In this document: positions 22,009 to 49,931 of the stretch, one piece after another
Layout: every line of letters starts with the position of its first letter
How positions within the stretch are numbered: the first letter of the stretch is position 1
The notes under the pieces: generated by a model
Database searches by the model: none
Told to the model about the DNA's origin: nothing
Seen by the model: the letters and a program-made list of their open reading frames with translations, nothing else
Program-made: the position numbers and the translations under genes
Origin: Escherichia coli
GTDB taxonomy: Bacteria; Pseudomonadota; Gammaproteobacteria; Enterobacterales; Enterobacteriaceae
Reading direction: 5' to 3' (one strand)
DNA: 64,000 bases
Assembly: GCF_013315695.1 (NCBI RefSeq)
Contig: NZ_CP054353.1

Positions 22009-23408
22009 ACTTCTCTCTGTAAATCCCGTTCCAGCGGTAACTCTACTGTAATGCTTACCCCGCCAAAAGGCGAATGGGCAGCAATAATGCGACCATTATG
22101 TGCTTCAACAATGTTCAGGCAAATCGCCAGCCCCAGCCCGGAACCGCCGCTGGCTCGGTTGCGGGAGCCTTCGGTGCGATAAAAACGTTCAAACAATTTT
22201 TGTAGCTGATCGTCACTGACGCCCGGCGCGCTGTCGGCAAAGGTCAGGCGCACCGTTTTGTCGTGCTGCTCGGCAGAGATTTTCAGGCTACCGCCGCTGT
22301 CAGTGTAGCGCAGGCTGTTTTCCAGTAAGTTATTGAATAACTGCATTAAACGGTCGCGATCGCCAAATACGGTAATACTGTCTGGCAGGGAAAATTGCAG
22401 TTTCAGGCCACGGCTGGCGAATCGTTCGCGAAATGCGCCGCCCGCCACTTCCAGCAGTGGGATCAAATCTACCGGTGCTTTTTGATAGGCGAGAGCGCCT
22501 TCATCAGACATCGACAACTGATGGAGATCGTCAACCAGTTTGGTCAGTGTACCGACCTCCGCCTGTAAAGACGCCACCGTCTCCGGCGTGAATTTACGCA
22601 CGCCATCCTGAATAGCTTCCAGTTCGCCGCGCAGTACCGCTAAAGGCGTGCGCAGCTCGTGGGAGATATCGGCCATAAAATCGCGGCGCATCTGTTGGTT
22701 TTTCTCCAGCGTGCTGGCGAGCTGGTTGAAGTCTTGCGCCAGTTTGCCCAATTCATCTTCACTGGTGGGCGTCACGCGAGTAGTGAAATCGCCCGCTGCC
22801 AGTTTGTGTGTACCGTCCACCAGTCGTTTGACCGGAGCCAGCAAACCGCGCGCCAGTGGGAATGTCGCCAGCGCCGCTAACAAGGTAGATAAAGCGACAA
22901 TCAGCCAACTGGTTTGCCTCTGTTGTCTGTCAAAATTGATATCGGTATTGCGGGTCAGTCGTTCAACAGGGGAGGCGATCACCGCACCCACTTCCGCCCC
23001 ATTGACCATAATGGGCCGCCGTGTGCCGTCTGGTGGAATCGGTGCTCGCGGGCCAACCAGCACTTTGTTGTTTTGATCAACCACCCAGAATTGCGTGCGC
23101 CAGCCGTGTGGCGGCATACCGGGGCCGGGCTTATCTTCGTTGTTATCATGCTCCAGCGAACGTAGGATCTGAAATACAAAGCGATCGTTATTACGCAGGA
23201 AGCGCCAGTTCCCGTGCTGGGCGTACTGCTCACCAAGCGCATCGCCGAGCATTTGCAGCCGTTGTTCATTACCATGCTTGATGTAATCAATAAAGCCACG
23301 CTCAAAACTGATACGCACCGCCCAGTGCATACTGATCAGCAAGACAATGCAGGTGGCGAAAATCGCCAGAAACAGTTTGCCGGTAATACCGGGTCGCCAG
23401 AACTTCAT
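22005..23408 (-). CDS. baeS: Sensor histidine kinase BaeS
   Basis: 467-aa ORF with TM segments, HAMP domain, H-box (SHELRTPL) and ATPase motifs. Confidence 0.9.
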
Positions 23409-45852: not shown

Positions 45853-45857
45853 TAGCA

Positions 45858-46148
45858 CTAAGCAGCATGTGGATATTGAATTTCAATACGTTGAATATGC
45901 AATCCTGCATGAGCCATCATGGTGATCAATTTATCGATACTAAAGATCTGGATCTTACCTCTGGCAAGTTCAGATATGCGAGGTTGAGTGACCCCTAAAG
46001 CAGACGCTGCCTGAGCCTGGCTAAACCCTTGTTGTTCAATCCAGTTATTAATGATCGTTACAAGTTCGGCACGGATCCGCATATTTTCCGCTTGTTCAGG
46101 GGTGTCACTCACCGCATCCCACACACTATCAAAGGTTTCAATTTTCAT
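45858..46148 (-). CDS. HigA-like antitoxin (XRE-family HTH)
   Basis: HTH QAQAASALGVTQPRISELARGK; immediately downstream of and overlapping a RelE/ParE-superfamily toxin-like ORF, the HigB-HigA gene order. Start codon uncertain (46148 or 46166). Confidence 0.65.
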   Translation of the reverse strand: MKIETFDSVWDAVSDTPEQAENMRIRAELVTIINNWIEQQGFSQAQAASALGVTQPRISELARGKIQIFSIDKLITMMAHAGLHIQRIEIQYPHAA

Positions 46149-46475
46149 TTTTCCGCTCCTGAACAAGTTCTTTATAGCGTCGTTTGTCTAAATCAATATC
46201 CGATTGACTGGTAGTCTGTGTTTTCTTTTGAAAACAATGCAATACGTAAACCGCTTCTTCAAATTTTGCGATATACATGACGCGATAGATCCCATCAGCA
46301 TCGCGAGTACGAATCTCTCGCACACCAGGGCCGATAGTTGAAAAGGTTTCCAGTCGTATGGGTTTAACCCTTGTTGGATCCTGTCGAGTTGATAGCCAAT
46401 TTCCTGTCGAGACGATTCTGGAAATGCGCGTAAATCGTCAAGACTGGTATCAAGAAAAGCCAGCTTTTTTCTCAT
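46138..46475 (-). pseudogene. HigB-like toxin (RelE/ParE superfamily), split by a frameshift
   Basis: N-terminal part (46188..46475) and C-terminal part (46138..46323) are in different frames; adding one T/A in the A4 run at 46341..46344 gives a continuous toxin of about 112 aa. Confidence 0.6.
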
Positions 46476-46549: not shown

Positions 46550-48133
46550 TCACACTTCGTACTCCATCTCGCCATCCTTACGTAGCGGAATAATTTGCAC
46601 CTTCTGCACGCGATGGCTTTCCACCTGCAACGTTTTAAGCAAATAATCCCCCACCTGAACTTCTTCGCCAGGTTTTGGAATACGCTGCAAATATTCCATC
46701 AATAGCCCGGCAATGGTGTGATATTCACGTTTTTCATCCAGCGGCAGCGGCACATATTGCACCAGATCCTCCAGCGGCATATGACCATTCGCCGTCCAGG
46801 AACCGTCCGCATTTTTCTGAATATCATGGCGGGCGTCGATCTCTTCCACTTCGTTCGGTAAGTTACCGGCAATGGTTTCAGTGACGTCACTTAATGTCAC
46901 AATTCCTTCCACCGAGCCAAACTCATCCACTACAAAAGCAAAGTGCGTGCGGGCATTACGGAACTGCTCCAGGGCAGGTAACAACGGCAAGGTTTCCGGG
47001 AACACCAGCGGCTGGCGAATCAACACCCGCAGGTTGAGCGGTTCGCCGCGCAGAGACTGTTGTAGCAGGTCGATAACGTGAACAACACCGAGCAAATCTT
47101 CTGCGTCATCACCGTCGGTAACCACCAGCCGCGTATGCTGATTTCGCTCCAGCAACTGGCGGATTTCTTCTTCCGGTGCGTTGAGATCGATATGCTCAAT
47201 ATCGTGGCGCGACGTCATAATGCTGCTGACGGTGCGCTGGTTAAGATTAAGTACCCGCTCAATCATCCGCCGTTCCTGCGGATTAAAGATTTGCTGGTTA
47301 CCATGATCCACCAGCATAGACGCGGTTTCGGCGTCCAGTTCCGCATCTTCTTTTTGCCCGCTAAGCAGGCGCATTACCGCTTCGGTAGTCCGCTGGCGCA
47401 GCGTCTGGTTAGCGGAAAGAAAACGTCGCCGGTTAAAGATAGCCAACTGATTGAGCGCCTCGATCATCACCGAGAAACCAATAGCAGCGTACAGGTAGCC
47501 TTTCGGAATGACGAAGCCGAAACCTTCTGCCACCAGGCTAAAGCCAATCATCAACAGGAAGCTTAAGCAGAGAATAACGATCGTCGGGTGACTGTTAACA
47601 AATTGCGTTAATGGCTTGCTGGCCATCAACATCAGGCTGATAGCGATAACGACGGCGGCCATCATGACCAGTAAATGGTCGACCATCCCGACGGCGGTAA
47701 TCACCGAGTCGAGTGAGAAGATGGCGTCCAGTACCACAATTTGTGTCACCACCCCCCAGAACTTCGCACCTTTGCGTTGTGTGGGGTTATTGCTGTCTTT
47801 CCCCTCCAGCCGTTCGTTCAGCTCCATCGTGGCTTTGAACAGCAGGAAGAAACCACCAAACAGCATGATTAAATCGCGGGCGCTAAAGGTAAACGAGCGG
47901 AAGCTGAACAGCGGTTGAGTCAGGGTGACCAGCCAGGAGATTGACGCCAGCAGTAACAGGCGCATTAACATCGCCAGCAGCAGCCCGGTAACCCGTGCGC
48001 GGTCGCGCTGCTTCGGCGGTAGTTTTTCGGCGAGGATGGCAATAAAGACCAGGTTATCAATGCCGAGGACCAGTTCGATTACAATCAGCGTGATTAACCC
48101 GGCCCAGATAGACGGATCGGCAATCCATTCCAT
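46550..48133 (-). CDS. yegH: TerC/CBS/CorC-domain membrane protein
   Basis: Start placed at [13 protein letters not shown] (527 aa); TerC-like membrane domain plus CBS pair and CorC C-terminal domain. Confidence 0.8.
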
Positions 48134-48601
48134 AGTAAGTACAAAACCTATTCGTTGTATGACAAATGTCACAATTCGATCATGGATAAATCGGGGCAAA
48201 AATGCAATGTTGCAGCACTATTTATCTCATATTATTTGAGGGTAATAACCTCACATTATCCCTGAATTAAAAGTGGTAATAATAAAACATTATTTAAGAA
48301 ATATCGCATGTGGAGACACTATATTAAATATTGTCAACCTAAAGAAACTCCTAAAAACCATATTGAATGACACTTAATATAATTCTTAAAAATAGCCAAT
48401 TGCCGAATTGTTACCTTGCCTGCTATTCCGTTAGCTGTAACACTTCCTCCTGCATTATTGGAGAGCCAATATTCAATTACCATAATGTCACCTTATATTC
48501 GGAAGTTAATTTCCGCAATAACCCTTTCTCATCAACGACTGTATGTTGAGAGAGTTTTAAAAATTAAGCTAAATCAGTGTATTGGTAGCTAAAAAGCCAG
48601 G

Positions 48602-48613
48602 GGCGGTAGCGTG
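48602..48613 (+). promoter_or_regulatory. ops element (GGCGGTAGCGTG) within JUMPstart, RfaH-dependent antitermination site in the wza leader
   Basis: Exact ops core GGCGGTAGCGT about 180 bp upstream of wza start. Confidence 0.8.
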
Positions 48614-48791
48614 TCTGGATGCCTGAAAGACCAGTCTGAATTATTCTGTCAATAGCCTGCGGATGAAATCAATTTTTTTAGGACTGATGCCAGTTAAATT
48701 TTTATTCAATTAACTGCAAGGTAAATGTGCATGGCGACATTGCTATTAATAGTGCACAGGATAATTACTCTGCCAAAGTGATAAATAAACA

Positions 48792-49931
48792 ATGATGAAA
48801 TCCAAAATGAAATTGATGCCATTATTGGTGTCAGTAACCTTGATAAGCGGTTGCACAGTACTTCCGGGCAGCAATATGTCGACGATGGGGAAAGACGTCA
48901 TCAAACAGCAGGACGCTGATTTCGATCTCGACAAAATGGTGAATGTTTATCCGCTGACCCCGCGCCTGATTGATCAATTACGCCCACGCCCCAACGTAGC
49001 GCGCCCCAATATGACGCTGGAAAGTGAGATCGCGAATTATCAGTATCGCGTCGGGCCGGGGGACGTTCTTAATGTCACCGTCTGGGATCACCCGGAACTC
49101 ACCACGCCAGCTGGTCAGTACCGCAGCTCCAGCGACACCGGCAACTGGGTACAGCCTGACGGCACCATGTTCTACCCGTATATCGGCAAGGTTCACGTCG
49201 TGGGGAAAACGCTCGCTGAAATCCGCAGTGATATTACCGGGCGCTTAGCGACGTACATCGCTGACCCGCAGGTGGACGTTAATATCGCCGCCTTCCGCTC
49301 ACAAAAGGCCTATATCTCCGGACAGGTGAATAAATCCGGCCAACAGGCGATCACCAACGTGCCACTGACCATTCTCGATGCCATCAACGCCGCGGGTGGC
49401 CTGACTGATACCGCTGACTGGCGCAACGTGGTGCTAACACACAATGGTCGTGAAGAGCGCATTTCTTTGCAGGCGCTGATGCAAAACGGCGACCTCAATC
49501 AGAACCGACTGCTTTACCCCGGCGATATTCTTTACGTGCCGCGTAATGATGATCTGAAAGTATTTGTGATGGGTGAAGTGAAGAAACAGAGCACCCTGAA
49601 AATGGACTTTAGCGGCATGACCCTGACTGAAGCCCTGGGCAATGCTGAAGGCATCGACATGACCACCTCCAACGCCAGCGGCATCTTTGTCATTCGTCCG
49701 CTGAAAGGCGAGGGCGGGCGTAATGGCAAGATTGCCAATATCTACCAGCTGGATATGTCCGATGCCACGTCGCTGGTGATGGCGACAGAATTCCGCCTGC
49801 AACCTTATGACGTGGTGTATGTCACCACCGCCCCGGTTTCCCGCTGGAACCGTCTGATCAATCAGTTGCTGCCAACTATTAGCGGTGTCCGTTACATGAC
49901 GGATACAGCCAGCGACATTCATAACTGGTAA
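48792..49931 (+). CDS. wza: Outer membrane polysaccharide export lipoprotein Wza
   Basis: 379-aa ORF with lipobox LISGC; first gene of the colanic acid cluster. Confidence 0.9.

Follow-up and report, generated by a model that had tools for sequence, protein, structure and literature searches.

The yegH–wza intergenic region of Escherichia coli: a JUMPstart/ops leader preceded by a candidate array of three RcsAB-like boxes

The colanic acid operon is controlled through the JUMPStart-RfaH mechanism and by RcsA/RcsB (PMC9976346), and described examples of both kinds of control are available for comparison. The RfaH elements of polysaccharide, haemolysin and F-pilus operons (rfaQ, rfb/wzx, kps, hlyCABD and tra) carry a JUMPstart structurally like that of wza, and the 12-mer GGCGGTAGCGTG is found in identical form at rfaQ, wzx and tssH of CFT073; the wza copy stands on the non-template strand and, given the putative promoter described below, would likewise belong to the 5' leader of an operon of about 20 kb. 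The wza ops is one of the eight leader ops sites that load RfaH by ChIP-seq in CFT073 (PMC9765446, Data set S2), ops copies located within genes failing to recruit it (PMC9765446). The RfaH ChIP signal at the identical wza ops (GGCGGTAGCGTG, at -190) is seen only in delta-hns delta-stpA cells and is gone in delta-rfaH, and wza has been termed a 'cryptic' RfaH locus; otherwise, RfaH is absent from wza because H-NS, which is bound at the yegH–wza region of CFT073, silences initiation there in rich medium (PMC9765446).

With respect to initiation, the consensus of the RcsAB box is TaAGaatatTCctA (PMC4325325, PMC3950696) and that of the RcsB homodimer box is TN(G/A)GAN4TC(T/C)NA (PMC7913699). A compiled table gives, with reference to Wehland & Bernhard 2000 and Stout 1996, TAAAGAAACTCCTA for the RcsAB box of E. 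coli wza, and also lists TAAGGATTATCCGA for that of rcsA (PMC4381331, Table S1); an equivalent of the rcsA box is listed for Salmonella (PMC7913699). Two RcsA/B boxes have been reported in the promoter of rcsA, which is autoregulated; the first of them (box1) overlaps TGAATTGCCATTAATATA (PMC11879457); in K-12, ATTAATATAATTCCGT is followed, 33 bp further on (centre to centre), by box2, TAAGGATTATCCGA.

The DNA analysed here (the window, 64,000 nucleotides) derives from an E. coli chromosome; over 751 bases around the wza leader its identity to several complete E. coli genomes is 100%. These 751 bases are found in 4838 of 5426 genomes, where the flanking genes are annotated as yegH (TerC family, minus strand) and wza (plus strand). 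The intergenic DNA is 99% identical to that of K-12 MG1655, with all promoter and leader elements discussed below unchanged, and its GC content is 27-39%, against 50-59% in the flanks, with values of 27-33% around positions 48375-48388. A preliminary description of the sequence had rightly seen a divergent yegH/wza region, but its size of roughly 590 bp was an underestimate: it had begun the region at 48200, in keeping with the longest ORF of yegH (start at 48199) and not with the annotated ATG at 48133. Its mention of a 'long colanic acid operon' agrees with the gene order wza-wzb-wzc-wcaA...cpsG, all on the plus strand and reaching the end of the window, the operon measuring about 20 kb. The features on which the following discussion is based are these:

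48134..48791, no strand: yegH–wza divergent intergenic region, 658 bp, from the RefSeq annotation of identical E. coli records
48295..48308, minus strand: site C, an inverted RcsAB-like box found by position weight matrix (PWM), TGCGATATTTCTTA on the minus and TAAGAAATATCGCA on the plus strand; centre about -150
48340..48353, plus strand: site A, the RcsAB box documented for wza, TAAAGAAACTCCTA, of published sequence; centre about -105
48375..48388, plus strand: site B, an RcsAB-like box found by PWM and conservation, TAATATAATTCTTA (reverse complement TAAGAATTATATTA); centre about -70
48416..48444, plus strand: putative core promoter, from conservation, with -35 TTGCCT (48416-48421), a 17-bp spacer and extended -10 TG-t-AACACT (48436-48444)
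48451..48791, plus strand: wza 5' leader of about 340 nt, its 5' end placed from the putative promoter
48575..48613, plus strand: JUMPstart element with hairpin, a full-length match to Rfam RF01707
48602..48613, plus strand: ops element GGCGGTAGCGTG, an exact 12-mer of the non-template strand, the wza ATG following 190 nt further on
48792..49931, plus strand: wza, first gene of the colanic acid operon, from the annotation of identical records

The RefSeq/PGAP annotation also places in this region a 49-aa 'hypothetical protein' (WP_162829205.1, 48334-48483, minus strand), whose open reading frame shares DNA with boxes A and B as well as with the core promoter. Of 76 orthologous regions, only 2 keep this frame intact; an internal stop interrupts it even in a further E. 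coli, and the annotated gene is almost certainly a spurious product of annotation. On the far side of yegH, genes for a RelE/ParE-family toxin and an HTH antitoxin (45857-46475, minus strand) lie between asmA and yegH, where K-12 MG1655 has 273 bp of intergenic DNA only; the pair is, therefore, a strain-variable toxin-antitoxin insertion.

The exact ops core that the preliminary description had placed at 48602..48613 is indeed present on the plus strand, and lies within a full RF01707 match (57.3 bits, the gathering score being 35; E 7.6e-12; model positions 1-38 of 38 covered). The JUMPstart element is 39 nt long and GGCGGTAGCGTG forms its 3' end. The exact 12-mer occurs once in the 64 kb, while two matches with at most one mismatch are found in the window against 0.32 expected from shuffles; as the 3' end of a complete JUMPstart match, the ops is far beyond chance. 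The other match, GGCGGTAGCCTG (one mismatch; 22284-22295, minus strand), lies where mdtC and mdtD meet, on the coding strand, and is probably a chance occurrence because intragenic ops copies, according to the published data, do not load RfaH. Among 80 enterobacterial wza loci (Enterobacteriaceae, one genome per species, including Escherichia, Citrobacter, Salmonella, Enterobacter, Kosakonia, Lelliottia, Cedecea, Buttiauxella and others), the ops core GGCGGTAG is found at about -190 from the wza ATG in nearly all; the value of 217 in some loci is only apparent, the protein match having begun at residue 10. All 34 orthologues of a leader alignment retain the JUMPstart hairpin TTGGT...GCCAG. Together with the conserved position, the JUMPstart and the RfaH ChIP signal at the same ops (PMC9765446) bear out the RfaH-dependent expression that had been proposed from the 12-mer.

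The JUMPstart element lies about 190 nt before the first gene and about 150 nt past a conserved core promoter, whose start is placed by inference. TTGCCT is found in 66 of 74 orthologues and TG plus AACAAT in 65 of 74, at fixed spacing; E. coli has AACACT, a poor hexamer that is missed by a simple promoter scan. This arrangement suggests a transcription start near 48451, from which the length of the leader (about 340 nt), the positions of the boxes (about -150, -105 and -70) and that of the ops (about +152) follow. The RcsAB boxes would, then, sit upstream of the promoter and outside the leader, and the preliminary view of the whole of the roughly 590 bp as 'leader' has to be given up, as the boxes precede the conserved core promoter. 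A combination of -35 TTAGCT with a -10 further downstream was considered and rejected, since that -10 varies in both sequence and position. The simple scan returned one match, TGGAGA-16-CATAAT (48459-48486, 9/12), against 3.5 expected in shuffles, and no terminators in the region.

Within the leader, positions 48455-48570 are poorly conserved and variable in length. RNAalifold, applied to the alignment of 34 leader sequences, gave three hairpins and nothing more: that of JUMPstart, a small one at the ops and one of 4 bp close to the start codon. Covariation was essentially absent, so that no further structured RNA element is supported, and a permissive Rfam scan returned JUMPstart alone and no other family. 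Past the ops, the blocks 48640-48660, 48676-48697, 48708-48719 and 48755-48791 are near-invariant across genera; they include ATTATTCTGTCAATAGCC, TTTTTAGGACTGATGCCAGTTA and, just before the ATG, CAGGATAATTACTCTGCCAAAGTGATAAATAA, and contain no strong Shine-Dalgarno sequence.

Consensus matching for RcsAB boxes gave three places at 9-10 of 14 (48295-308, 48340-353 and 48375-388), among which the consensus alone could not discriminate; a literature-derived PWM and phylogenetic footprinting were, therefore, used. The PWM was built from 16 distinct RcsAB boxes of PMC4381331 Table S1, leaving the wza box out, and the footprinting alignment comprised 76 sequences of 420 nt upstream of the ops. With the leave-wza-out PWM, exactly three intergenic sites exceed 7 bits, at the very positions of sites C, A and B. 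All three, the documented one included, score below the range of the training sites (7.8-10.5 bits against 10.7-18.9), and singly none is significant in shuffles (P 0.15-0.22). Taken together, the real 420-nt upstream regions hold 2.89 PWM matches each against 0.21 in shuffles, and that of the window holds three against 0.26, a number reached in 0 of 300 shuffles; moreover, no alignment position other than those of sites A, B and C is PWM-positive in many species.

The spacing of these elements is likewise constrained: sites C and A are 48±1 bp apart in 47 of 52 cases, 66 of 71 have 34-35 bp between sites A and B, and all 71 have 30-31 bp between site B and the -35 block; the distance between the -35 and -10 blocks is fixed in 70 of 71. 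The distance from promoter to ops, in contrast, varies from 152 to 190 nt, and the boxes and the block 48410-48447 therefore appear as one promoter module. At 48216-48229, a weaker fourth position is PWM-positive in about 21% of the orthologous regions and lies beside a short stretch of conserved sequence around 48220-48229; it may be part of the divergent promoter of yegH.

Site A, TAAAGAAACTCCTA, occurs once in the intergenic region and is the same in K-12; the single wza box in the published compilation of RcsAB boxes (PMC4381331, Table S1) is this one, at 48340-48353. Its leave-wza-out PWM score is 7.8 bits (plus strand), and 64% of the 76 orthologues are PWM-positive here, with a median of 11.1 bits; in other genera the site reads TGAGGATAATCCTA, a much better match to the consensus. 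The right half with the following A-tract, TCCTAAAA, is near-invariant in the 76 orthologous regions, the left half being looser. Two nucleotides upstream of site A, at 48332-48337, the sequence TGTCAA is invariant in nearly all aligned regions and present in all but two of the displayed sequence variants; a similar flank, TGTnAnCC, precedes rcsA box2 in K-12, and these flanks may represent an extension of the RcsAB recognition sequence.

Site B lies in the AT-rich string CTTAATATAATTCTTAAAAATAGCC, which had been put forward as a candidate RcsAB box 'around 48370..48396'. The string is real, with its true position, 48373-48397, 1-3 nt away; it is not the documented box, which lies 35 bp upstream, but does contain a conserved RcsAB-like 14-mer. 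Indeed, the PWM scan that the preliminary description had suggested as a check, and whose failure to find a site would have spoken against the candidate, returned site B at 8.9 (plus) and 9.2 (minus) bits, above the 7.8 bits of site A and below all 16 training sites. Site B matches TaAGaatatTCctA at 10 of 14 positions on either strand and departs from it at conserved ones, G4 being T on the plus strand and C11 being A on the minus strand; the T in place of G4 is invariant in the orthologous regions that have the site. At the orthologous positions the PWM medians are 10.1-10.5 bits, and 87-89% of the 76 orthologues are PWM-positive, which makes this the most consistent position of the alignment. 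Variation among the 76 regions is limited to positions 7 and 9, which belong to the unconstrained middle of the motif; TAATA....TCTTAAAA is otherwise invariant. The right half, TC(C/T)TAAAA, is common to sites A and B, the left half of site B being the invariant TAATA and not TaAGa, and the distances to site A and to the -35 block place it at fixed spacing upstream of the promoter. Thus, although not the documented RcsAB box, site B is a credible additional RcsAB-like sister box as judged from sequence and conservation.

Site C is the best PWM match of the intergenic region (10.5 bits on the minus and 8.5 on the plus strand), and its aligned position is PWM-positive in 58-71% of the 76 orthologous regions. 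When compared with the RcsB homodimer box, each of the three wza boxes has one canonical half-site (TCCTA, TCTTA, or TAAGA/TAGGA) and one mismatch in the other half. The imperfect half fits the requirement for RcsA at the wza promoter, and explains why a strict pattern search listed no wza promoter site in the part of the Salmonella table examined (PMC7913699). Lacking G4 on the plus strand and C11 on the minus strand, site B departs by at least one mismatch from the RcsAB consensus and from the strict RcsB box alike.

The rcsA promoter offers a precedent for such an arrangement: both loci have, at a great distance upstream of the start, two boxes that are some 33-35 bp apart. A 12-mer, TTAATATAATTC, is common to wza site B and to the region of rcsA box1, the upstream box, its sharing being only marginally significant (98 of 2000 shuffles, P about 0.05), and rcsA box2 resembles wza site A, flank included (CCTAA....TCC.AAAAA, 16/22 identical by eye). 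The order is swapped, however, with the B-like box upstream in rcsA and downstream in wza, and wza, unlike rcsA, has an extra third, inverted box.

On these grounds, the colanic acid promoter of the Enterobacteriaceae may be under the control of a rigidly spaced three-box RcsAB array rather than of a single box, a reading to which an even chance is given as a whole, inclusive of its two corollaries: that the promoter-proximal box B would position RcsB beside RNA polymerase, and that a multi-dimer RcsAB complex would both displace H-NS and activate a weak extended -10 promoter. As far as could be checked, boxes B and C appear not to have been described for wza in the literature examined; several reviews and application papers refer to the RcsAB box but give no coordinates, and full-text searching with the sequences of the candidate boxes returned nothing relevant.

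The chief competing view is that site B is conserved for some reason other than RcsAB/RcsB, the RcsAB complex acting through 48340-48353 alone; site B could, then, be the site of another regulator, an H-NS nucleation or curvature element (through its A-tract TTAAAAA), or a spacing or architectural element. The compiled table with its one wza box (PMC4381331), the invariant T where the consensus has a conserved G, a PWM score under those of all known sites, and a location in very AT-rich DNA that is bound by H-NS in vivo (PMC9765446) are all in keeping with it. That variation is confined to positions 7 and 9, precisely the unconstrained centre of the RcsB/RcsAB motif, would be harder to understand on such grounds, as would the invariance of an RcsB-type half-site, TCTTA, followed by an A-tract as in the documented box TCCTAAAA; the consistency with which this alignment position is PWM-positive across species (87-89%), the co-conservation of three boxes far above chance and the paired boxes of the rcsA promoter point the same way. 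A role for site B outside the Rcs system is, on balance, considered rather unlikely.

The position of the promoter and the significance of the ops can be questioned with less force. The functional wza promoter might be TGGAGA-16-CATAAT at 48459-48486, with a start at about 48493 and the block 48410-48447 serving as a further activator site. RcsAB boxes typically lie 'far upstream' of the promoter, and site B would, in that case, fall at about -110, near the usual position; the match is also the only one (9/12) of the consensus scan. One match where shuffles give 3.5 is, however, not significant, conservation is at its lowest in this part of the region (identity scores 0-5 of 9), and in K-12 its -35 already differs (TGGAAA), whereas TTGCCT-17-TGnAACAAT is fixed in 65-66 of 74 orthologues at rigid spacing to the boxes, so that this alternative is improbable. 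Even less can be said for a fortuitous ops 12-mer without a role in cps expression: chance ops-like 12-mers do occur, e.g. the one-mismatch copy at mdtC/mdtD, and intragenic ops copies recruit no RfaH (PMC9765446), but the wza copy forms part of a complete JUMPstart of 39 nt, hairpin included (E 7.6e-12), occupies the non-template strand in the leader of an operon and holds its position across about 75 species. With RfaH ChIP published at the same site (PMC9765446), such a view, hardly conceivable from the start, is effectively refuted.

The region thus serves, with high confidence, to regulate the colanic acid (cps/wca) operon of E. coli, and initiation and elongation would be controlled in succession. 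Transcription would initiate at a weak, activator-dependent sigma-70 promoter (TTGCCT, 17 bp, TGnAACACT), which, according to the literature, H-NS silences on the AT-rich DNA and phospho-RcsB with RcsA switches on from the documented box at 48340-48353. Boxes B and C, which flank site A, would also be occupied by RcsAB or RcsB, a step held to have an even or marginally better chance of being correct. RNA polymerase would then cross the leader of about 340 nt, transcribing the JUMPstart element at roughly +125 to +163; the ops, on the exposed non-template strand, would pause the polymerase and recruit RfaH, by which elongation would be made resistant to Rho and to H-NS over the operon of about 20 kb.

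The control of cps by JUMPstart/ops-RfaH and by RcsAB is already known, and the window carries the standard E. coli allele. What is gained for annotation is that the documented RcsAB box is placed at 48340-48353, that the leader is set apart from the promoter and that a spurious open reading frame is exposed. The two further RcsAB-like boxes, at fixed spacing and conserved across about 75 species, constitute a modest lead: if functional, they would guide the design of Rcs-responsive reporters and of strains for the overproduction of colanic acid, and boxes B and C would refine the understanding of how RcsA and RcsB overcome H-NS and activate the wza promoter.
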